DNA of 64,000 nt. Origin: a virus. The notes under the pieces are model-generated. The model saw only the letters and a program-made list of their open reading frames with translations. It did no database searches and was not told the origin of the DNA. The translations under genes and the position numbers were made by a program. Below are positions 32,842 through 53,802 of the stretch, one piece after another. Position 1 is the stretch's first letter, and each line of letters begins with the position of its first letter. The DNA lies in IMG/VR virus record IMGVR_UViG_3300042731_011014, positions 1-64,000 of that record; one strand, 5' to 3'.

Positions 32842-33242
32842 GGCTCCTCTATAAGGTTAGTAACTGTATTCCAATCATAGACCTCCAATACCCCAATCAC
32901 CATAGATTCGATCTCGCTCTCATCAAAATCTCTGCATGAGCAAATATTGAGCCAAAAAAATCCACCATCATCTCTTTGTAAGTTTCTTTTAGACCAACCG
33001 TGAAACGATATGTGAGATGTTGAAAGTATCAAAGCACTAGAACCGCCTTCGTCGTAAAAAACCGCCTCCCCTTTCCTGCTAAGATCTTCTTTAACATTTA
33101 CAGAAATTGATTTCAAAACCCTCATTCCTATAAGATCACATATGCATGACAGTAACCACTTTATATCCCCTTCTGAGTTAAGAAAATCCCTCCTCTTAGT
33201 CCAACCGACTAAATCAACACTTTTGCCTATTATTCTTTTCAT
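32838..33242 (-). CDS. S-adenosylmethionine decarboxylase-like proenzyme
   Basis: GGSSALILSTSHISFHGW...LNICSCRDFD parallels the AdoMetDC ESHISIHTW...DIFTC self-cleavage motif. Confidence 0.72.
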   Translation of the reverse strand: MKRIIGKSVDLVGWTKRRDFLNSEGDIKWLLSCICDLIGMRVLKSISVNVKEDLSRKGEAVFYDEGGSSALILSTSHISFHGWSKRNLQRDDGGFFWLNICSCRDFDESEIESMVIGVLEVYDWNTVTNLIEEP

Positions 33243-36200
33243 CCCTTTGTCCTTTAAGGTAACCTTTTCTTTTGTAAAACTTTTCCCTACTTAAATACAT
33301 ATTGTTAAATTCAGGAATCATACTATCAACCATGTCAACTATTATAACAGGGGTTTTTTTACCCTTATCGTATCTAGCGGCCCTTCCGACAGCTTGCTCA
33401 ACGTCAGACATGGGAGATGCTAATACCTCTGTATCAATATCAGGTATGTCCAATGCTTGAGACGCCATTTGAAAAGTCGCAAAAATAACTTGGGCTCGCT
33501 CTGCTTTTTTTAACTCATCATCAGTTCTTTTTTTCTTTTTTCGTTTTTTATTCTCATCAACCTCATTGGTAAACCATTGGCCTGTATAATAATCAACAAC
33601 CGTACATGGACCAAGTTTAGTATCTAAAAAATAATCCTTAATTCTATCAAGGTGAAATAAAGATGATGATAGAACAATTACTTTCCTTTTAGCCTCAACT
33701 ATTCTCTCTAATTCAAGAGCTATTCTTTGATTCCTTTTCTTATTAGCATAAAGGAACTTTAGCTTAATCTCTTTTGGGAGTTTACCTGGATCAACTTTAT
33801 CCGTCTTAATTATATCAAATCCAGTCCACACCCTTTTAACAATAATATCCATCTTTTTGGTATTAGATTTGTATCCAACCCTACCAATATGATATAGGAA
33901 AACCTTTTCCGTTCCATCTTTCCTTCTTGGAGTCGCTGAATTGTGTACAAGTATTCCACTAGAAACAAATGAACAGTGACCACAAACTTCAAGATCGTAA
34001 ACATATTTTGGCCGAGCAACATCTCGAATCTCTCGCACAATTCCCTCGGCAAAATTCATGTCTCCATGAACAAATCTCCTCCTACTACCATATCGCCCAT
34101 ATGAATTACCATCGAGAGCATGTTTTGAAAAATACACAACATATTTTATTCTCCTGCCTTTTATTCTTCTACCATCAATCATTCCACCACTCACCCTCTC
34201 ACTCACAGAGCACCCAGATAATACCCCAAGACTTCTAAGTAACGATTGACATCCATATGCAAGGCTCTTAGAAGTAGTAGTAAAATGGTAACTTTTCTTA
34301 TCACCATCCCTCTCACTTAAACTACCATCTGAATCAAGTAGCCCCATTAAAAGTTCCATCCTGTCGTTTTTTTTCCATCCAACTATCCACTCCCCAGGAA
34401 TCCATTTTTTATAACAATAAATCTTATCACCCCAAACTGATCGAAATATTTCCGCAACAATCCTATTAGAGTATCCTACTTGACAACTACCTTGTCTTTT
34501 TTCTGTCGATAATTTCCAATTCACCCATCTCAAATCAGACATCTTCTCGATAAAATTAGAAACATCCCTCTCCTTAACAGAGAAACATATTTTACCACCA
34601 TCTAACCACCCATTGCCAAGCCAAAATCCAAACATATAAGCCCAGTCTCTAAGTTCTACTACGCATGATACATACGTACCACTTGCACCCTCTGTATAAA
34701 TCAACTCAGGATCACTCAAAAACTTTCTTTTTCTAATAAATTCTTTTATTGGCAGCCTGCTACCATATTTACCATTTAAATATCTCCACCTGGTTTTTGA
34801 ATCATATTCTTTAACATCTTCTCTGGTTAATCCAACAGCTACATGGACCTTGCTTAAATTAATAGCAGATTTCATAATAATAGATGGAACATCTATAGAA
34901 CCTAAAGAACCACCTCCCCACTCATTCCCATTATCTACAAAAAGACAATCACCTTCAACAATATCCGCGACTCTACACTTTTCAATACCTGCTATTTCCT
35001 TCTTTTTCCCATTTACATACTTGTAATCCAACCCAGCAACTCTAAATATCTCGTGACTTGCAGTAGCTACCAACCTGTTTCCCGACACTGTCAGCTCTTT
35101 AACATTATCGGTACAATTATGCCGGAATATTTTCTTAACCTCCTTCCATTTAAAATCTCTACCACTCCAACCTCTACTGCTAATTCCAGAATTTCTTGTA
35201 TCAATAACTCCATCCTTCTCTGAAAAAAACCTTGAAGCCATAGAATACGCATCCTGTATTTTTCCAACCCAACCACGCCCAAAAATTCCACCTCTCAATT
35301 CCACAACAGATTCTGGGCCAACACTAAGACCAATGCGATTCCTTGCCCTGAACATGGGCATTAATGGCGAAAATGTTGGAGCAGATATCCTATGCACCTC
35401 GTCGGCGATAACTAATCCTGGCCAATCATAAACCTCTTGAGGATATTTACCTTTTCTCATTGATTGCATCATGCCAATTACAACGTCACATCCGCTCGTT
35501 TGACATATATTAGATCTAATAAAGCCAACCTTAACACCTGGAACAAATTCCTCAAGCCTAGCCTTCCATTGATTCATTAAAAACTCGCGATCAACTAGAA
35601 CAAGCGTTGACATTCCAATCGTTGCTATAATTGAACACGCCACAACCGTGTTATGAGTTACTGTAAAATCACCCAATAAGAATCTGCCATCACTATCAAG
35701 TTCAAATCCAGCATACTCACCAACACCATCATCCCTAATGCTAATACCTGTCCTTGTAGCACATTTTATTTGTTTCCTTTCTCCGGGAAACTTCCTCTTT
35801 ATCCTCATTGGGATATCTTTAAAATCACCGGAAACAATCATCCTATAGCAAGTTTTGCTATTAACAACTTTCTCACTAACTGTAACCATAAAACCAAGAG
35901 ACCTAGCTAAAAAACATATACCATCCGCATAACCTTTTCTTGATTGAATTATCTCCATGCACCCGCCAGCATTATTTCCATCAGTATCTAAAATACCAGC
36001 AAAAAATTCTCTTCTATTGTATCTGGAAGATACAAGAAACTTTTTTGGTATACTGCAAGAATTCCTCCCAAAAATATCCCTCATCAACGAAAGCAACCTG
36101 TTACTACCACCACGTTCTCCACATGTTATATGATATGTTGGACAGCCGTTGTAAGAATAATCTGTTCTAACAAAAAGATCAAATTTTCTCGCAATCCTAT

Positions 36201-37026
36201 CACATTCATTATAAATTTCTACATCAGGGTTACTTATCGCAACACCATTCAGATTTTTAGTACCATCCCCAATCCAAATACCAGCAAAATAAGGATCAAT
36301 TGGCAATTTAGGATATGGCTCAGGAAAATCTATACCATTTGGAGGAGAAAATTGTTTATATCTAGATCTCTGGGACTCCGTCAAAGACCTCCATTCATCA
36401 ATAGATATATCTACAATTTCTTTGCTTTTATTATTTACAAGAGTAAGAATATGAACATCATTACACACCCATGATTCGCCTTTTATTGGAATAATTCTCC
36501 TCAATTCGCCAACGCCACGAGTAGTGGACAATACCTTCTTTGGCTTACTATCTGGTCCCATTAACATATCACCAGCTTTTACATCTTCAACACATGTAAT
36601 GTCACCATTATAATGAAGAACCTTCGTTCCAATTTTAAGGCACTTACCAAATCCTGGCTCTGCTTGTATTATCAAGCCAGTTCCAGGATGCTTTAAATAA
36701 TCTACAGCAACATCATGTGCATTTTCCTGATCATGTCGAAAATTAATCCTGGATTTTAAAAATACTTGATTACCATGACTTAGTCTATACTCAATATCTA
36801 TTCCAATTAACCCTTTTTGAAAGAAATATTCTCTAGGAATTCCAATATAGTTACCCCTTTGCTCATACATAAAAATTGGTTTCGGATCATCAGCAAGTCT
36901 ATGCATTTTTCTTGGAGTAACAGTTAATTGCTTCCTATACTCAAACAACCCGTTTATTTCCATGTCATCAGCATGGATCCATGCCATACCGTTAAGGATA
37001 GCTTTCACCCTACGCTCTCCTGACAA
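33214..37026 (-). CDS. Superfamily II DNA helicase containing two inteins
   Basis: Spliced motifs AEPGFGK|T, IADEVH, GL|SATP, EQAVGRAAR. Confidence 0.92.
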   Translation of the reverse strand: MSGERRVKAILNGMAWIHADDMEINGLFEYRKQLTVTPRKMHRLADDPKPIFMYEQRGNYIGIPREYFFQKGLIGIDIEYRLSHGNQVFLKSRINFRHDQENAHDVAVDYLKHPGTGLIIQAEPGFGKCLKIGTKVLHYNGDITCVEDVKAGDMLMGPDSKPKKVLSTTRGVGELRRIIPIKGESWVCNDVHILTLVNNKSKEIVDISIDEWRSLTESQRSRYKQFSPPNGIDFPEPYPKLPIDPYFAGIWIGDGTKNLNGVAISNPDVEIYNECDRIARKFDLFVRTDYSYNGCPTYHITCGERGGSNRLLSLMRDIFGRNSCSIPKKFLVSSRYNRREFFAGILDTDGNNAGGCMEIIQSRKGYADGICFLARSLGFMVTVSEKVVNSKTCYRMIVSGDFKDIPMRIKRKFPGERKQIKCATRTGISIRDDGVGEYAGFELDSDGRFLLGDFTVTHNTVVACSIIATIGMSTLVLVDREFLMNQWKARLEEFVPGVKVGFIRSNICQTSGCDVVIGMMQSMRKGKYPQEVYDWPGLVIADEVHRISAPTFSPLMPMFRARNRIGLSVGPESVVELRGGIFGRGWVGKIQDAYSMASRFFSEKDGVIDTRNSGISSRGWSGRDFKWKEVKKIFRHNCTDNVKELTVSGNRLVATASHEIFRVAGLDYKYVNGKKKEIAGIEKCRVADIVEGDCLFVDNGNEWGGGSLGSIDVPSIIMKSAINLSKVHVAVGLTREDVKEYDSKTRWRYLNGKYGSRLPIKEFIRKRKFLSDPELIYTEGASGTYVSCVVELRDWAYMFGFWLGNGWLDGGKICFSVKERDVSNFIEKMSDLRWVNWKLSTEKRQGSCQVGYSNRIVAEIFRSVWGDKIYCYKKWIPGEWIVGWKKNDRMELLMGLLDSDGSLSERDGDKKSYHFTTTSKSLAYGCQSLLRSLGVLSGCSVSERVSGGMIDGRRIKGRRIKYVVYFSKHALDGNSYGRYGSRRRFVHGDMNFAEGIVREIRDVARPKYVYDLEVCGHCSFVSSGILVHNSATPRRKDGTEKVFLYHIGRVGYKSNTKKMDIIVKRVWTGFDIIKTDKVDPGKLPKEIKLKFLYANKKRNQRIALELERIVEAKRKVIVLSSSLFHLDRIKDYFLDTKLGPCTVVDYYTGQWFTNEVDENKKRKKKKRTDDELKKAERAQVIFATFQMASQALDIPDIDTEVLASPMSDVEQAVGRAARYDKGKKTPVIIVDMVDSMIPEFNNMYLSREKFYKRKGYLKGQRDEKNNRQKC
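33940..35325 (-). mobile_element. Intein (462 aa, Ser1) with LAGLIDADG endonuclease in helicase motif III
   Basis: L|SVGPESVV ... ILVHN|S; internal MFGFWLGNG and LLMGLLDSDG. Confidence 0.9.
35650..36642 (-). mobile_element. Intein (331 aa) with LAGLIDADG endonuclease in helicase Walker A
   Basis: K|CLKIGTKV ... FTVTHN|T; internal FAGIWIGDG and FFAGILDTDG. Confidence 0.92.
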
Positions 37027-38052: not shown

Positions 38053-38274
38053 TGTTCACCTACCACATTTCTATTATAATAGAACACGAACTGCCTTCAA
38101 ACATATATTCACTATAAAGGTATCTTGGTTCATAGTTAATAAATATCTTCTTAGTACCAAGCGCTAATGATATTTTTTCCATCATATCAAAAGTTATGTT
38201 CACATATTCATTAAATTCTACAGTAACAACTCTACATTTATCATCCTGAAACCATATTTGATTTCTATTTATCC

Positions 38275-38374
38275 GATTATTACCTATTACACCCATAATT
38301 TGTTCAATTATTTGATCTTTATCCATCTGATTATTACCTATTACACCCATAATTTGTTCAATTATTTGATCTTT
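38275..38374. repeat. 46-bp exact direct repeat, 54-bp period
   Basis: gattattacctattacacccataatttgttcaattatttgatcttt at 38275-38320 and 38329-38374; an in-frame 18-aa duplication at the start of ORF 38060..38350. Confidence 0.95.
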
Positions 38375-38400
38375 TCTTACCTGGACATTTATCCATATGA

Positions 38401-38610
38401 TTGCCTATGCATTAGCGGGAATCGAACCCGCAAGCCCCCCACGGACTCTCTAAATTAAGGCTACAAGGCCGCATAACTGAGCAAGCTGCTCAGCTTACTG
38501 CCTTGAGCCTTAATGCTGGTTACGTAATCCAGCGCCATCTGTTTCAGTAGACCGTCTATCCGTTTAAAGCATCCCAGTCAAAACAACCGAAACTGCCTAG
38601 GCGTTTGCAT
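38401..38610 (-). ncRNA. Structured RNA with a tRNA-like T-arm (non-canonical; tmRNA/Y-RNA-like candidate)
   Basis: GCGGG-TTCGATT-CCCGC T-arm at 38431-38415; acceptor-like ATGCTTTA/TAATGCAT pairing; internal hairpins GCTGG/CCAGC and a long nested stem ATTAAGGCT-CAAGGC..CTGAGCA/TGCTCAG..GCCTTG-AGCCTTAAT. Confidence 0.62.
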
Positions 38611-38628
38611 CCCTTTTTTGTTAAAAGA

Positions 38629-39333
38629 TTAAAAAGGAATATCATCCTCTACTGGCTTATCACTATTCTTCTTGTTTTCATTGTTCGTGAAAACGGACTC
38701 CTCTCTACGTACTGCATTTAGTATTCTAAGTAACTCGGAGCGACTTTTTGGAGCAAAGAATTTTTCATAATCGTAGGACTCAGGTGTCCATATTTTACCT
38801 TGTTTATCTTTGTACTTAAACTCATCAGCACTAAGATCCACCTCACCTAAAAACTCGCGGATATCACCTGAACTTGCATCGGTCTCAGACGCCCTATAGA
38901 ACTCGTATTTACATCCTTCCAGTGACCCTCTACGCTGTCTAGATCGCTCAATTGCCTTTGCCACATCTGTTTTTACAGCAAGTAACCTCTTGACATTTTT
39001 TCTTTCATTCCCTTTTTTATCAACCCATGGAGTAGCATCGATAACAGTATACATAGTTACATAATATTTTTTCTGACCCGAATCGCACAGTGGACAGCCT
39101 TCAGGATTTTCATCAGGTGGAATGTTTTCAAGACATGTGAACCAATTTTGCCATGTTCCATTTAGGTAAAGTTGATGCTCCCAGAACTGAATACATTCGT
39201 CATCGACAAAGATAATTTCTCTATATTTATCAGGTGGCATCCATACCCGCTGAGGAGGTTTAGCTCTATTTTTCTGTTCCTCTTCTCTTGCCTCTTCAAA
39301 ACCATCGTACCCTGTTTTAAACCATCCGGCCAT
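38629..39333 (-). CDS. Phage gp32-like single-stranded DNA-binding protein
   Basis: FWEH...FTC...CPLC Zn motif and acidic DDIPF tail, located in the replication operon. Confidence 0.75.
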   Translation of the reverse strand: MAGWFKTGYDGFEEAREEEQKNRAKPPQRVWMPPDKYREIIFVDDECIQFWEHQLYLNGTWQNWFTCLENIPPDENPEGCPLCDSGQKKYYVTMYTVIDATPWVDKKGNERKNVKRLLAVKTDVAKAIERSRQRRGSLEGCKYEFYRASETDASSGDIREFLGEVDLSADEFKYKDKQGKIWTPESYDYEKFFAPKSRSELLRILNAVRREESVFTNNENKKNSDKPVEDDIPF

Positions 39334-39644: not shown

Positions 39645-41807
39645 TTACAATTTAATATTCTCTATTTCTTTAGTTACCTCTTTTTTACTCATACCACCGG
39701 GATCGCATTCGTCTGGTAACTCAATAACTTTAACCTGGATTTTTTTAGCTATAAGATTTCTCAACTTAACCATTGCATCCTTTCCCGCCTTATCACCATC
39801 AAACATTATTACAGCGCCTCTGTTAACCGGAATGCATCTAACTATCCTTAATATCTGTTCGTCACTAAAACCTGTCCCCATTGTCGCAACCGCATTGTAC
39901 CCATACTGCCACATAATAACAGCATCGATATGGCCCTCAACTAAAAACACATCACCCCTAGACTCCTCTATAAGATGTTCACCGAATAAAAAATTACCCT
40001 TCTTGAACCTTAAAAAATCAGATTCCCTTCTCCAATCAATAAATGGCTTAAGTTTATACTCACCTATATCCCAATTATAGTGACAATTATGGACCAATAA
40101 GCCATTATTTACAAATGTCTTTGCCTCAGTTTCAAAATCAACAAGTTCTTCCTCTGATAAAAACTCAATACCATCAACAGCAACAGGCATACCATCTCTT
40201 ATGGTATGAATTAACATAGCACTTTCAAAACGGTCCCTTACAGTGGACGCGATCATCCTCAGCATCGACCATGATACCCTACTTCTACCTGCCAATGCAT
40301 CAGGATTAATCCCAACACCAGACTCCCTGCAAAATTCTCTTAACAATTCACCCGCGAACATCCCAGTTTTTCTTTCGCTACCATAATGCCTAATTATTGC
40401 CTTTTGTTTCTCATTAATACCAAATCCAACTGAATTAGCAAATCTCACTGCCTGCTCGCCACACATTGTTAATACAAAAGAACCACATTTAGATCTCTTT
40501 TTATTAGCAAAAACCCCAACTGACTGCAATAATAACATAATACCGTCTATGGCACATTCAGAATTCAACCCTATTCTAACCTTTCCATCAGCACTTGATC
40601 CGTCAGCATCAAACACACCACGAATAAATCCAACAATTTCAGATCTAGAACTCATTGTCGGTACAAACCATGAGCTACTTTTGCTTCTACGTGGCCTACT
40701 ACCGATACAATCTAATGCACGTATTCTATCACCTGAAATCGCAAACCACTTAGTATCACCACATGGTTTTCTTTCAACAAATTTTAGACCACTCACCTTG
40801 GCGGCCTTTTTTAATGATTCCCGCCAATATTTCACATTTTTATCAAATCCAAAAACAATTGTTCTACTGCTTTCTCGATATCCATCACCACAAAAGGCAC
40901 CTACAAGCCACCACCATAAATCTGCAACATTATCACCGCTTGCCCAACCAGGTGCTAAATACATAAAATCATCACGACTTAACTCCTGTGAATGAACCCA
41001 GCTCCATTTACCTTTTTTCCAGCACCAAACCTTGTGATTGAAACCAAAAAACACTTCTTGACCATTCCTAAGGGAAACTTTTACAACCCTACTGGTTGTA
41101 TTCCATTTATTTACAATTTTAGACCATCCCCATTTACCTTCTTTCTCGTTAAACGACCACACCTTATCCCCAACCACGACCGCACCTGCTTCGATACAAC
41201 CTCTTCCTGTAATAATAATTGAATCTCTTCTAATACAATATTTTGGTATCCTATCTCCAACACTTCTACCACTTACCCCGCGCAATCTCCCCCTTTCATC
41301 TCTTGTCACAAATATCGCTCTAGCGTTCTTTTTGTCAAACCCAATATTCCAATATCTTGCTGTCTCGATACTTATACCACGATCAAGAATATACCTTGGG
41401 ATCTCCCCTAAGAATCCATCAATAGATGATTCAGGCAAAAAATCGTAATAATAATCGCTTTTATCTTTACATTCTGCCTTTTTTGCCCAAGATGAAATCA
41501 TCTGTCTAGGTAACCTTGAATACCTCATAAGCAATAATGATTTGCCGGAGAAATCCGGGGAATCATATCCTTTTAGCCCCCATTCGCTTATTGCCATTTT
41601 TTCAAGAATGCCTTCAAAACCACAAGCAAAGCATTTACAGTAACTACCTCCAGAGTTGTTAACAAAAACCGAAAACGATGGATTCCTATCATACCCTCTT
41701 TTATGGTTCTCCCCTTTTGGGCATGTTGAAATAATAGATCGCGCTCTGTTCTTTATTTTTTTGCACCCAATAGATTCAAGTAACTGTTTTATCTTATCTT
41801 CTGTCAT
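39645..41807 (-). CDS. dnaG: DNA primase (Zn finger + TOPRIM) with an intein
   Basis: CPKGENH..NPSFSV...CFACG; VEGHIDA, FDGDKAG, DPG. Confidence 0.9.
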   Translation of the reverse strand: MTEDKIKQLLESIGCKKIKNRARSIISTCPKGENHKRGYDRNPSFSVFVNNSGGSYCKCFACGFEGILEKMAISEWGLKGYDSPDFSGKSLLLMRYSRLPRQMISSWAKKAECKDKSDYYYDFLPESSIDGFLGEIPRYILDRGISIETARYWNIGFDKKNARAIFVTRDERGRLRGVSGRSVGDRIPKYCIRRDSIIITGRGCIEAGAVVVGDKVWSFNEKEGKWGWSKIVNKWNTTSRVVKVSLRNGQEVFFGFNHKVWCWKKGKWSWVHSQELSRDDFMYLAPGWASGDNVADLWWWLVGAFCGDGYRESSRTIVFGFDKNVKYWRESLKKAAKVSGLKFVERKPCGDTKWFAISGDRIRALDCIGSRPRRSKSSSWFVPTMSSRSEIVGFIRGVFDADGSSADGKVRIGLNSECAIDGIMLLLQSVGVFANKKRSKCGSFVLTMCGEQAVRFANSVGFGINEKQKAIIRHYGSERKTGMFAGELLREFCRESGVGINPDALAGRSRVSWSMLRMIASTVRDRFESAMLIHTIRDGMPVAVDGIEFLSEEELVDFETEAKTFVNNGLLVHNCHYNWDIGEYKLKPFIDWRRESDFLRFKKGNFLFGEHLIEESRGDVFLVEGHIDAVIMWQYGYNAVATMGTGFSDEQILRIVRCIPVNRGAVIMFDGDKAGKDAMVKLRNLIAKKIQVKVIELPDECDPGGMSKKEVTKEIENIKL
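40086..41237 (-). mobile_element. Intein (384 aa) with LAGLIDADG endonuclease in primase
   Basis: PKY|CIRRDSII ... LLVHN|C; internal LVGAFCGDG and FIRGVFDADG. Confidence 0.9.
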
Positions 41808-42017: not shown

Positions 42018-44561
42018 TCATAAAAACAACTCATCATCTTTGTTTAAATCATCGTTCTTAATTGCCTTTTCCGGCTTATCAGCTTGACCAAAATCCATTG
42101 TCTTAAAATCCCATTTAGATACCAGATCCATGATTTCACCCTCCCTCATTTTGAGCATCATAATTTTCATAAGGCCATCCTGCTTGAAATCCCCGGTCTG
42201 AACCAACGCAAAAGCTATATCTGCATCCCATCCAATAACATCGGTAATGCCAATATTTGCTATATCAATTGTATCCGGGTCGTCATCACTTACTGTCCGA
42301 TTAAACTGCGTTGACGCGCACCCGACAATACCATACCTTTTTGCTAGTTTTTTAATATGATCTGCAACCATAGACACCCTGGTATGTCGATCATAAACGC
42401 CGGGCACCTTGACCAAGTACATCCCATCGATCACTACAATATCAGGTCTGGTTTCATATATTGCAGCCTCTATGCTGTCCAATGTAATATCAAAATCGTC
42501 ACCAACGATGTAAATGCCTTCATTTTCAATCATACTGTCGATTTCATCGAACATTTTTGCTTCCGCAAAATCACCAAGCTTAGCTCTACGCATATTCTGG
42601 TAGTTCATTCTCAAATGTATTGCATAAAACCTTTGAGCAATTCGAGCCTTTGCCATCTCGGTGCATACAAAAAGAACCTTGTACCCATTCAACCATGCAG
42701 CTCGAGCAACTAAAATCATCGCCCATGTATTATGCGCAACTAAATTATTCGCTATGTAGTTATGGGTGCTATTAATAGTAAAATCACCAACTTCATGATC
42801 ACCATCATCCTCAACCGATATAAGCTTATCAAATAATATTTCCTCGCTCACCATCCACTTAAACCTATCCAATGCATTTTCTGCTTCATCGAATAGCGCC
42901 CTCAGATATCTTCTACTACCACAGCCATTTCCACTTTTATTAACAAAATCTCTCGTACTAACATAAGATTTCAGACCAAGTCTCTCCCTGACCCTATTAA
43001 AAAGTAATTTACCTTTATCAGTCTTTAAATACTTAATCCTAAAACTATCCTGCGTCTTAAAGATAGCACCCCTTAGTTCATCGCTTGATGGAACGACATC
43101 AGTATTTGGATTAATTGAATCCTTAACCAGTTCCAATCTCTCACCTTTTGGTCCAGGCATATTGTGGAACATATCTCTAAACTTATTTCGGGTCCAGGCC
43201 TCGACTCTAAGTCGCCATGCATTAAATTCCTTCCCTTCACACTTCACCTTCCTATAGCTCTTTGATGCAACAATTCCAAACCTTAAGAGTAATGTTACCA
43301 ACTCATCGACCAATTTTTCCGAAGACAAAGAAATCTCAATCCTATCTCTCCCGCCATTCCTAACCTCACCGTCGCACGCCCAAAATACCTCTATAAATCT
43401 CGCGAGTAAAACATTTGGGAGTTTCCATATTACATCAGGAATACACTTATTAATTGATTTATCACAACCAATTCCATACCTATTCAAAAAAGCCCTACCA
43501 CCAAGAAGACTATATGTATTCTTAGCCTTTCGATCTGAAACATCCAATCCAGCGCTTTTCGCTGCTGTCTTGAACAAAGTAACAATTGACTTCTCCTCTT
43601 TAGTTACCGTTACATCATATCTCTTTGTATAGTTTCCATCAGCAAGTAATATTGCCATTAACTCCACGTGGCTAACCGGTATAGAAACAGGCTCTACTGG
43701 CTCTGGAAGCCATGCTGAACCAACTATCCAATCCTCACGCACATTCAACCTGTCAGCTCTTACCCATCCTCTTTGTGTTAACATAGGGTGCTCTGGTGTG
43801 ACCGATATTTTTCTACCCAATCTTGTTTTTATTTCTAGACATTTGCTTCGGCCAGTAAGAATCCAAGCATCAGGAACAACAGCTTTTATCCCCCCACCGT
43901 TAGCCTGATCAAGCGTATAGACACTTTTTCTCTTATCAATAACATCTTTCGCTAGTAACCTCTTACCTGTTAGAGGATCGATCATGTAGGTATTATCAAG
44001 CCTATTACACTTTCCAACACCTAACCGGGCTACGGCGACAACAAAATCACCCGGCCAAAAACCAAGTGTTGCCTCAGTCATATCCTCCCATGGTGTCGGT
44101 ATCCCAACCTCACCGCGTTTAATTTTCATATAGATTTCTTTAACTTTTGGACCAAGAGAAAAAAGACTTTCAACTTTTGCTGACCCAGGGGATGTTGCCC
44201 AAATCCTCCTACATAATTCAATATTCTTTTCAAACGCCTTTTCAGGATCGTTTTTTTCAAGATGCTTAATTACCGGATCTAAACCTTCTCTTAACTCAAG
44301 GTATAATGATCTCTTTTTTACCTGTTCAATCCAATAGCCAACCACACCATCAGACTTACCCAGCAATATTCCCTTTGCTTTTTTAACTATACTTTCCGAG
44401 GGAATATCATCAAATTTCCTCCAATACTCTACTATAAACTTTACGACAGTTGCACCCTGACCCTGTAACATACTGGGAGTTATACCACTATTGATTAATT
44501 CCAAAATGCCGTCACGGCCACCATTAAGCAAGGCGCACGCAATGCCATTGTCAATATCCAA
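42018..44561 (-). CDS. dnaB: DnaB-like replicative helicase with an intein
   Basis: ARLGVGK|T, FVCTEM, VVIDGMY, STQFNR, DADI. Confidence 0.92.
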   Translation of the reverse strand: MDIDNGIACALLNGGRDGILELINSGITPSMLQGQGATVVKFIVEYWRKFDDIPSESIVKKAKGILLGKSDGVVGYWIEQVKKRSLYLELREGLDPVIKHLEKNDPEKAFEKNIELCRRIWATSPGSAKVESLFSLGPKVKEIYMKIKRGEVGIPTPWEDMTEATLGFWPGDFVVAVARLGVGKCNRLDNTYMIDPLTGKRLLAKDVIDKRKSVYTLDQANGGGIKAVVPDAWILTGRSKCLEIKTRLGRKISVTPEHPMLTQRGWVRADRLNVREDWIVGSAWLPEPVEPVSIPVSHVELMAILLADGNYTKRYDVTVTKEEKSIVTLFKTAAKSAGLDVSDRKAKNTYSLLGGRAFLNRYGIGCDKSINKCIPDVIWKLPNVLLARFIEVFWACDGEVRNGGRDRIEISLSSEKLVDELVTLLLRFGIVASKSYRKVKCEGKEFNAWRLRVEAWTRNKFRDMFHNMPGPKGERLELVKDSINPNTDVVPSSDELRGAIFKTQDSFRIKYLKTDKGKLLFNRVRERLGLKSYVSTRDFVNKSGNGCGSRRYLRALFDEAENALDRFKWMVSEEILFDKLISVEDDGDHEVGDFTINSTHNYIANNLVAHNTWAMILVARAAWLNGYKVLFVCTEMAKARIAQRFYAIHLRMNYQNMRRAKLGDFAEAKMFDEIDSMIENEGIYIVGDDFDITLDSIEAAIYETRPDIVVIDGMYLVKVPGVYDRHTRVSMVADHIKKLAKRYGIVGCASTQFNRTVSDDDPDTIDIANIGITDVIGWDADIAFALVQTGDFKQDGLMKIMMLKMREGEIMDLVSKWDFKTMDFGQADKPEKAIKNDDLNKDDELFL
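42729..44009 (-). mobile_element. Intein (427 aa) with LAGLIDADG endonuclease in DnaB Walker A
   Basis: K|CNRLDN ... NLVAHN|T; internal MAILLADG and FIEVFWACDG. Confidence 0.9.
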
Positions 44562-52835: not shown

Positions 52836-53363
52836 TTACCAGTCACCCCGAAAATTAGAGAACGGCCAGCTAAACTTCCCCTCGCCGGGTGGTTTTTTAC
52901 CAGCAATCCTCATAAAATCCTCAAACAATCCGATAACAAAAGGTAATACCCTATCATCGCTAATAACACCATGAAGGATAATATCGTCTGGAAGCGTAAT
53001 AACACCCTTATAGCTTTGTCCATAAAGATCGTACAGGTAACTAACGACCGACTGCCATCCACCATAAACATCATTTGCTTCTCTGGCTATAGGGTTCCAT
53101 CCACCTTTTTTTACCCAATTGTAGTTATCAAATGATATATCATCATCATCTGACTTCCTCCATTCAGGTGACCTAATCATAGTAACAAAAGCTTTCTCGC
53201 CAAAGACAGGGGGGATATAGGGCCACATTACTATTTGGGCTATACAGTACTTTTTCGGATCTTTTCCGGCAGTAACCAAATGCGCCATCACTATTTTCTT
53301 AAACATACTTACTCCTTGCTTTGGCCCCCTCCGCCAGATTCGAACTGGATCTTTTACCGACAT
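52836..53363 (-). CDS. Hypothetical protein
   Basis: 175-aa ORF. Confidence 0.55.
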   Translation of the reverse strand: MSVKDPVRIWRRGPKQGVSMFKKIVMAHLVTAGKDPKKYCIAQIVMWPYIPPVFGEKAFVTMIRSPEWRKSDDDDISFDNYNWVKKGGWNPIAREANDVYGGWQSVVSYLYDLYGQSYKGVITLPDDIILHGVISDDRVLPFVIGLFEDFMRIAGKKPPGEGKFSWPFSNFRGDW

Positions 53364-53802
53364 TGAGGCCTATACCCGGTAAACGTTTTACCCTATAAAC
53401 TAAAGAGGGGCTTTTAAATCATCAGAGACCGTTTATCTTCCTGAATCTCCTCTTTTTTTTCAATCTTATTACTTTACTTTTTCCTTGACCTTTTTCTGGA
53501 TCTGTCTTTTCTTCTTCTATAATCTCTTTTTACCATAATTACTTACCTGTTCATATTAAATGGAAGCAAATAATCATACTGTTCTGCAAAGTTCATCTCA
53601 TCAAGTATTCTAGCTAAATCTCTGGAATAGGGAACTACTATTCCAAAAACAACTAGCTCCTCGTCATCGCTCTTTTTAATAACCACAGGGAAGGGTGTAT
53701 TCTTTACCTTCTGAACTCTAACAAGATTTCCAACTTCATAACTTACCGGATCAGAAGTCTTGTAAATCACTCTACATCCGATTATTCGCTCAATCCTCTG
53801 CA

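Follow-up and report, generated by a model that had tools for sequence, protein, structure and literature searches.

The genome record of bacteriophage T4 annotates two small, stable RNAs of 120–140 nt, species 1 RNA (rnaC, 139 nt) and species 2 RNA (rnaD), which lie directly after tRNA-Arg in the transfer RNA (tRNA) cluster. To our knowledge, neither has an assigned function. The element described here is a structured RNA located on the minus strand of IMGVR_UViG_3300042731_011014, a 177,890-bp phage record of the IMG/VR collection derived from a wetland metagenome; the window covers 64 kb from the start of this record. T4 rnaC is the closest known object in kind, since it is, as the window RNA, a structured phage RNA linked to tRNAs which is not itself a tRNA. 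Its end is formed by a canonical T-arm (CCGGG-UUCGAAU-CCCGG) and by the acceptor-like strand that comes after it. The similarity between the two RNAs is limited to a 15-nt local alignment over the T-arm, and a covariance model of the core of the element (R1, see below) finds nothing credible in the T4 tRNA region, where its best score is 6 bits (E 5.6). In contrast to the window RNA, rnaD ends in CCA.

Other known RNAs combine tRNA-like parts with additional sequences. In the eukaryotic MALAT1-mascRNA system (RF01684), RNase P uses a tRNA-like structure to form the 3' end of the upstream RNA. The likeness is one of proposed principle, as in both cases a tRNA-like module would lie directly downstream of a functional RNA and be cleaved by RNase P; the sequences are unrelated, the match to one relative of the element (L009, see below) is at chance level (15 bits), and the processing of the phage RNA is only proposed. 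Transfer-messenger RNA (tmRNA; ssrA, RF00023) features an identical T-arm, and a tRNA-like shell devoid of D-stem around a large insert. The window RNA (about 210 nt) differs from it by the lack of the G3:U70 pair, of CCA, of an acceptor stem abutting the T-arm and of a conserved tag reading frame. Bacterial Y RNAs of the YrlA type are non-coding, carry a T-arm and a helix formed by the 5' and 3' ends, and are found also in phages; in M. smegmatis, YrlA is cleaved by RNase P and has CCA added to it (PMC4201824). The YrlA module is permuted, the T-arm preceding the D-arm, and the gene is located beside Ro60 (PMC4201824). In contrast, arms follow the tRNA order in the window RNA, the phage genome carries neither a Ro60/TROVE gene nor a CCA-adding enzyme, and no Y-RNA match was obtained in Rfam. 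The put (polymerase-utilisation) RNA of phage HK022 is an antiterminator, a cis-element of about 70 nt in the early operon, which requires no protein dedicated to its action; the initial prediction for its structure was of two stem-loops branching at a lone G (PMC9378689). It provides the best functional analogy for a cis-acting leader. Each put stem measures about 30 nt, the structure includes bulges and a triplex, and two put sites are present; the hairpins which form the core of the window RNA (Pa and Pb, see below) are single-copy, and show no sequence likeness to put. Neither the motif nor R1 has a match in the 22–32 kb region of HK022, which we take to contain the early control region.

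The preliminary description of the locus had proposed an unclassified structured RNA endowed with a genuine tRNA T-arm. Comparative data have strengthened this proposal. It is well supported that an RNA of about 210 nt, structured and non-coding, is encoded here (38613-38403), and that it is a long-form member of a widespread phage motif without match in Rfam 15, fused to a tRNA-derived module. The conserved element starts with the block GGGAUGCAAACGCCU at about 38613, upstream of the start originally given. With 51.2% GC, where the genome has 37.8%, the element ranks in the top 0.6% of sequence windows. The minimum free energy (MFE) of the fold is −85.6 kcal/mol (z = −4.25), and none of 200 shuffled sequences was as stable. 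Besides this T-arm, the 177,890-bp genome has no T-arm-like site with a GC stem. Searches of Rfam 15 matched no known class in the element at gathering scores, tRNA, tmRNA and Y RNA included; under permissive conditions, the sole tRNA-related match was with tmRNA RF00023, over the 17 nt of the T-arm (17 bits, where the gathering score is 47). ARAGORN, at default and relaxed thresholds (70% included), called no credible tRNA or tmRNA at the element, and low-threshold calls (a tRNA-Ala with a 60-nt intron, a tRNA-Ser on the reverse strand) were discarded as implausible. Of a cloverleaf, the T-arm alone is present, in contrast with the relatives L009 and L015 (Bordetella phage vB_BaM-IFTN2), which score 42.9 and 64 bits, respectively, with the Rfam tRNA model.

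The core of the element is made of two adjacent hairpins, which define a motif marking the genome of many phages. The motif is well supported, and includes an NCG trinucleotide, a variable Pa hairpin closed by a G-C pair, a near-invariant Pb hairpin, GC[C/U]GG-AUNNCGUAA-CC[G/A]GC, and a terminal CA; as first defined, it read NCG, Pa, G-CCGG-AUNNCGUAA-CCGG-C, A. The CCGG/CCGG form of Pb, searched as a 20-mer pattern, was found in more than 120 viral contigs at the least, and the CUGG/CCAG form present in the window in 102 further viral contigs. Dereplication left at least 181 non-redundant loci (101 and 80 for the two forms). The 20-mer pattern was also found in 119 contigs of a genome collection. 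Many of these matches are coding coincidences, as the alanyl-tRNA-synthetase-like stretch (motif GYVIRR) in Bacteroidota; those noted as clearly non-coding belong to genomes of beta- and gammaproteobacteria, and resemble copies in prophages. A full-text search for the motif sequence retrieved only EF-Tu coding sequence; subscription literature lay outside its scope, and an earlier description under another name is possible.

Homologues were also to be checked for covariation, and Pa was found to covary strongly. Among 95 sequences, 55 distinct Pa 5' strands were counted, opened by G and closed by C throughout. Stems measure 3–9 bp, loops 3–40 nt, and GNRA and UUCG tetraloops are frequent. With anchors set without any pairing information, Pa positions 2–5 are paired in 80% and 77% of cells in the two Pb-form sets, against 44% and 47% with shuffled partners, and in neither set was a shuffle as high as the observed value. 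In the seed alignment, the second Pa pair features six pair types, and is paired in 100% of the sequences. As for Pb, the two pattern sets differ by a double compensatory change in the stem, C-G to U-A. In the window, 6 of the 8 Pa positions are paired, the closing pair is G-C, and the 5' flank is ACG (38555-38553). The hairpin GCUGG-AUUACGUAA-CCAGC, pointed out in the preliminary description, is the Pb of this core, and the 19-mer is identical in Curvibacter phage P26059A. The covariance model R1 was built from 49 phage seeds, leaving out the window and the relatives L009 and L011. It matches the window at 38558-38511 (31.6 bits, E 6e-5), with no other match in the window or in the whole genome, and scores 43.7 bits in L009, 40.9 in L011, 38.7 in Pectobacterium phage ZF40, 33.0 in P26059A and 17.5 in L260. 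Exactly one copy was detected in this phage and in 5 of 5 other phage records. This single copy in six phages makes a promoter, terminator or processing signal of the generic kind less likely.

Relatives of the element were identified by different routes. Early pattern scans, in which GGAUAGAC was combined with a T-loop, gave nothing, or chance matches beside ordinary tRNAs. L009 was found by a pattern scan of metagenome contigs, and has four blocks in common with the window. The first is GGGAUG[C/G]AAACGCCU; the second, AACGGAUAGACGGUC, is followed by a hairpin of differing sequence; the fourth, C[U/C]GGAU[U/G]ACGUAACC[A/G]GCAUU[A/C]AGG, is followed 83–85 nt further on by GGGUUCGAUUCCC. The 3' part of L009 is a 102-nt tRNA-like gene (42.9 bits) featuring true acceptor stem, D-arm and T-arm, in which 40 nt replace the 11-nt anticodon loop region. 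Patterns derived from the common blocks led to L011, an IMG/VR sequence, and short-query blastn to unannotated intergenic sites in Burkholderia phi644-2, vB_E192a, Pectobacterium ZF40 and Bordetella vB_BaM-IFTN2. L260, the closest full-length relative, was found by scanning for the 5' block; it is a 73.7-kb phage contig, in which the element is flanked by GIY-YIG and DNA polymerase A genes at one side, by a RuvC gene at the other. When 50,697 phage records were searched with the element by blastn, no relative was detected at E 1e-5. IMG/VR scans anchored on the proteins of the window resembling single-stranded DNA-binding protein (SSB) and RecA revealed no close relative of the phage, a word-indexed search with the SSB-like protein gave the self-match only, and distant SSB relatives have no intergenic RNA at the syntenic position. 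Three weak candidates (L017, L018, L020) were excluded from membership. L010, a tRNA-Sec with AAACGGATAGACGGTC upstream, was judged a chance match because the Pa-Pb model does not match there. In this contig (PDVJ01001671, 2790-2808, minus strand), the 16-mer AAACGGATAGACGGTC, identical to the window junction, immediately precedes the promoter of a bacterial tRNA-Sec gene, at a distance of about 100 nt from the gene itself; the match is probably due to chance, with the four matching bases beyond the searched 12-mer unexplained.

In the window and in two to three unrelated phages (L260, L009, in part L011) the core is embedded in a larger fold: the 5' block and the junction CGGAUAGNCGG precede it, and a long variable hairpin and the T-arm follow. 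This long form is well supported. Window and L260 share an A-run followed by GGGAUGCAAACGCCU, then a hairpin which is short and variable, then UAAACGGAUAG[A/U]CGG, with both Pa and Pb, the loop of which measures 8 nt in L260. The 5' block is identical in L260, including the preceding A-run, reads GGGAUGGAAACGCC in L009, and GGGAUGGAAUCGCC, flanked by an 11-bp stem, in the Bordetella phage (L015). Closing helix A reads GCCUA/UAGGC in the window and GCCUU/AGGGC at the same places in L260, where the 3' strand AGGGC can pair with the GCCUU found just past the 5' block; one pair is thus compensatory (A-U to U-A). The P2 position is occupied by hairpins of unrelated sequence in L009 (AGGGGA..UCCCCU) and L260 (GGU..ACC). 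In the junction, CGGAUAGACGG is identical in L009 and L011, and corresponds to CGGAUAGUCGG in L260; GGAUAG is kept in four phages. The block AACGGAUAGAC, described earlier as D-loop-like, is indeed present, and GGAUAGAC is conserved in four loci; the role formerly attributed to it is a matter of inference, and this block may play a D-loop-like role opposite the T-loop. It is plausible, from three or four sequences, that the T-loop contacts the junction GG as in the tRNA elbow. The long nested stem reported previously corresponds to the 61-nt nearly perfect hairpin; its presence was confirmed, the sequence being specific to the lineage. At its place, L260 has an unrelated, long perfect hairpin just before the T-arm, L009 the D-arm and expanded anticodon region of its tRNA-like gene. 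T-arms with canonical loops and differing stems mark the 3' end of the larger fold in window, L260 and L009, which are unrelated phages: at the same place, L260 has CCAG-UUCAAAU-CUGG, and L009 GAGGG-UUCGAUU-CCCUU, within the tRNA match mentioned above. Of the RNAalifold result for window, L260 and L009, credence can be given to the core pairs alone, since MAFFT aligned the 3' halves poorly. Pb was not recovered in the single-sequence MFE structure of L260. The features of the locus are listed in the Table.

Table. Features of the RNA locus and of its surroundings, in window coordinates
Feature	Positions	Strand	Remarks
5' conserved block GGGAUGCAAACGCCU	38599..38613	-	P1 hairpin loop in relatives; 3' part overlaps closing helix
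Closing helix A, 5' strand GCCUAGGCA	38594..38602	-	pairs with 38411-38403; MFE fold
P2 hairpin, variable	38571..38593	-	weak, G-U-rich; MFE fold
Acceptor-like helix AUGCUUUA/UAAUGCAU	38572-38565 with 38414-38407	-	competes with closing helix A
Junction AAACGGAUAGACGG	38552..38565	-	"D-loop-like" block of the preliminary description; terminal ACG flanks the core motif on its 5' side
Pa hairpin GUCUACUG-AAA-CAGAUGGC	38534..38552	-	3+3 bp, 2x2 internal loop, G-C closing pair
Pb hairpin G-CUGG-AUUACGUAA-CCAG-C	38515..38533	-	R1 model match; followed by CA, to 38513
25-codon reading frame	38461..38538	-	"tag" of the preliminary description; starts in Pa, reads through Pb; judged non-gene
Long, nearly perfect hairpin, 61 nt	38454..38514	-	lineage-specific sequence; MFE fold
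T-arm, tRNA-type, GCGGG-UUCGAUU-CCCGC	38415..38431	-	local Rfam tmRNA/tRNA-clan match
Closing helix A, 3' strand UGCAUAGGC	38403..38411	-	MFE fold; L260 comparison
Gap housing the RNA, 278 nt	38628-38351	-	
SSB-like gene	38629-39333		phrog_17226
Small repeat-containing open reading frame	38060-38350		
Tandem 54-bp repeats	38060-38400	-	MDKDQIIEQIMGVIGNN units
Partial repeat copy	~38395-38351		frameshifted by a 16-nt insertion; directly 3' of the RNA
Primase gene	39645-41807	-	intein/LAGLIDADG insertion
DnaB-like helicase gene	42018-44561	-	intein/LAGLIDADG insertion
Superfamily 2 helicase gene	33214-37026	-	intein/LAGLIDADG insertion
tRNA-Pro(GGG), 89 nt	53322-53410	-	sole ARAGORN tRNA in the 178-kb genome

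The motif resides in different genomic contexts. In temperate phages it follows cI/cro-type regulators and precedes genes for exonuclease, RecT or methyltransferase; other intergenic sites are after capsid or terminase genes, and in replication modules. At most loci an open reading frame (ORF) starts 20–35 nt after Pb. In six phages (L015, L156, L177, L195, L198, L266) a tRNA starts 5–11 nt after Pb. This is tRNA-Arg(UCU) in Bordetella vB_BaM-IFTN2 and Curvibacter P26059A, a tRNA specific for Thr, Ala, Trp or Arg(CCU) in the uncultured contigs. In ZF40 and L009, degenerate tRNA-like sequences occupy this position. Promoter-like sites were found upstream of 17 of 98 loci and in 14 of 98 downstream controls, terminator-like sites downstream of the motif in 5 cases and in 11 controls; neither type of site is enriched, and identity with a generic promoter or terminator has been rejected on this ground and on that of the single copy. 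Derivation from IS200/IS605- or IS607-type guide RNAs has similarly been discarded, as there is no association with TnpB or IscB, and no second copy in the genome; large ORFs upstream of the family loci encode capsid, terminase, RecT and DUF proteins, none TnpB.

Some loci deserve a separate description. Read by eye, the P26059A sequence appears to contain one small unit, in which a TATAAT box precedes a leader of about 70 nt; the leader ends in the window-identical Pb, and tRNA-Arg(UCU) lies 5 nt further downstream. About 200 nt past this unit, a second TATAAT precedes a 99-nt gene (L266, 1802-1900), called tRNA-Pyl(CUA) by ARAGORN, which is possibly an amber-suppressor-like or aberrant tRNA. 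The unannotated ZF40 remnant (L014, 1528-1600, between gp09 and gp08) is called by neither ARAGORN nor Rfam, and features a 5-bp acceptor-like helix (UAGCG/CGCUA), a 7-bp stem with the loop CUUCCCU, and the T-arm CUCGG-UUCGACU-CCGGG. At seven loci at least (L223, L224, L234, L242, L152, L163, L254), the first gene past the motif, preceded by the shared ribosome-binding region CUGGCGAGAG[G/A]A, encodes a protein of about 450 aa which begins ..GERQV..IRRDHVARYEWAA..VIDFA and, to judge from its sequence, looks like a S-adenosylmethionine-dependent methyltransferase. In Burkholderia phi644-2 and vB_E192a (L012, 805-1648; L013, 531-1648), the motif marks the 3' end of a gene-free region of 0.8–1.1 kb, which is conserved between the two, and rich in GC-rich hairpins; a helix, CAUGGAGCCGG...CCGGCUCCAUG, encloses three of them. 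This region, which has no match in Rfam, may be a larger non-coding RNA.

We favour, tentatively, the reading that the element is a co-transcribed small RNA or leader module, the ends or stability of which would be set by tRNA-processing enzymes, Pb being the functional site. The RNA would be made within the operon transcript, and the tRNA-like 3' module would be the handle for host RNase P and 3' trimming enzymes; processing at this module would yield a discrete small RNA, or stabilise it. With its invariant sequence, the Pb loop would bind a putative conserved partner, which may be a machine of the host or a factor of the phage, and the junction GG may dock on the T-loop in a tRNA-elbow-like manner. 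The RNA would be neither aminoacylated nor active in trans-translation. Co-transcription with the neighbouring genes is probable, because no promoter-like or terminator-like site was found flanking the element on its strand. The T-arm is best read as the retained part of a degenerate tRNA partner, because in relatives the core lies 5–11 nt upstream of real tRNAs or of a tRNA-like gene. Strong conservation of the hairpin, single copy and varied contexts together suggest a specific molecular partner. In a bolder version, which we regard as unlikely, the Pa-Pb core is a new class of phage RNA, found in temperate as well as virulent phages, in which Pb targets a universal bacterial machine; in a few large phages, this one included, it has been turned into a tRNA-shaped chimera acting, for example, as decoy or modulator.

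Several observations weigh against processing as a tRNA-linked small RNA. The window has no conserved acceptor stem abutting the T-arm, which makes recognition by RNase P doubtful. Adjacent tRNAs are found at only about 4% of the family loci, and most cores lie so close to an ORF that a cis-acting leader fits equally. Invariance of the Pb stem within each set is imposed by the search patterns, and the near-invariance of Pb as a whole is in part a product of this sampling. The case for conservation of closing helix A is weak, coming from one compensatory pair in three sequences. The three assemblies available for this phage (two in addition to the record analysed) are identical over the element, and thus allow no test of covariation outside the core within the lineage.

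The possibility that Pa-Pb acts on its own transcript as a cis-acting leader, by rendering polymerase resistant to termination, in the manner of HK022 put RNA, or by affecting stability or translation of the next gene, the T-arm being a decayed tRNA without role, seems to us somewhat unlikely. The ORF start close to the core at most loci fits this explanation, and so do the location in early operons of temperate phages, beside cI/cro-type regulators and before exonuclease, RecT and methylase genes, the presence of one copy per genome, and the strong sigma-70-like promoters found 20–170 nt upstream at several loci; two adjacent hairpins joined at a G moreover recall the first put RNA prediction (PMC9378689). 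However, promoter-like sites upstream and terminators downstream are not enriched, HK022 has no match to the model, and the motif is found also after capsid and terminase genes. The core in addition precedes tRNAs, and in one case is part of a promoter-leader-tRNA unit; control of translation would be meaningless there, and antitermination seems unnecessary. A leader may alternatively be accompanied by a tRNA pseudogene, only the core (38565-38513) being functional, and the 3' remainder, T-arm included, a wrecked tRNA gene. This we hold improbable. Neither ARAGORN nor Rfam calls a tRNA at the element, acceptor pairing is lost, relatives have intact tRNAs at that position, and a possible D-arm remnant, GCUCAAGGCAG, was noticed by eye at the place of the L009 D-arm (GCUCAAUGGCAG). 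Against decay speak a T-arm which is perfect and has a canonical loop, a 3' half matching the core in GC-richness and fold stability, the identity of three independent assemblies, and T-arms retained, on differing stems, in three unrelated phages.

A signal at the DNA level, either a protein site corresponding to the 19-bp inverted repeat Pb, or hairpins formed in single-stranded DNA for origin, priming or nicking functions, would explain why the Pb stem hardly varies and its half-sites change together, as in inverted repeats bound by dimers, why one copy is present per genome, and why the motif is frequent in replication and recombination modules. Yet the strand is constant relative to flanking genes and downstream tRNAs, the loop sequence is asymmetric, Pa includes G-U pairs, and the variable length, free covariation and GNRA/UUCG tetraloops of Pa are typical of RNA; we consider this explanation very unlikely. 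The view advanced in the preliminary description, of a miniature tmRNA, or a tRNA mimic that can be aminoacylated, with a tag ORF, has been largely refuted, and retains hardly any probability. In its favour are the T-arm identical to the tmRNA consensus, the topology of a tRNA-like domain (closing helix, unpaired GG block, large insert, T-arm), and an ORF ending ..YAAL. Against it, ARAGORN makes no call even at the 70% threshold, the Rfam match is confined to 17 nt, and both the G3:U70 pair and CCA are missing. The acceptor-like pairing of that description is present in the sequence, the helix adjoining the T-arm reading U-A, G-C, C-G, U.U and so on, without CCA, but it has no counterpart in L260, and competes with closing helix A, which is separated from the T-arm by 3 nt in the window and 11 nt in L260. 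The 25-codon ORF is present as described, and not conserved: its peptide is kept in no relative, and in most family members, the commonest family sequence included, the frame is stopped by the UGA within GCC-GGA-UGA. Finally, the phage genome carries no gene for SmpB (the host would carry its own) and no CCA-adding enzyme. A mimic or decoy of tRNA in a wider sense, also suggested in the preliminary description, is conceivable.

The gap which houses the RNA is surrounded by replication genes. Distant tblastn relatives of the adjacent SSB-like gene are annotated as single-stranded DNA-binding. At the other side, the tandem repeats of the small ORF vary in number, as the Joint Genome Institute assembly of the same phage (L005, 3984-4328) has one repeat unit more (114 aa, against 96 aa). 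The insertions in the neighbouring primase and helicase genes have been assigned by the Pfam families Intein_splicing, LAGLIDADG_3 and Hom_end. The tRNA found elsewhere in the window is odd and over-long; if introns are permitted, the call changes to tRNA-Thr(GGU), with an intron of 14 nt, and the T-loop of this tRNA is missed by a simple TTCRANN scan. Among sequencing runs, the stretch is contained in one wetland DNA run, and no RNA run is listed as containing it.

The locus should be annotated neither as tmRNA nor as tRNA. If the comparative picture holds, a conserved phage motif with hundreds of representatives and clear covariation has no counterpart in Rfam 15, and resides also in cultured, tractable phages, such as Pectobacterium ZF40, Burkholderia phi644-2, vB_E192a, Bordetella vB_BaM-IFTN2 and Curvibacter P26059A. 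A logic shared with T4 species 1 and 2 RNAs, as small RNAs using tRNA processing, would, if true, bear on the function of the T4 RNAs. Were the core part of a tRNA-shaped chimera, it would be handled by tRNA enzymes, or compete with tRNAs. The partner of the hairpin, once found, could reveal a new phage action on a host machine.

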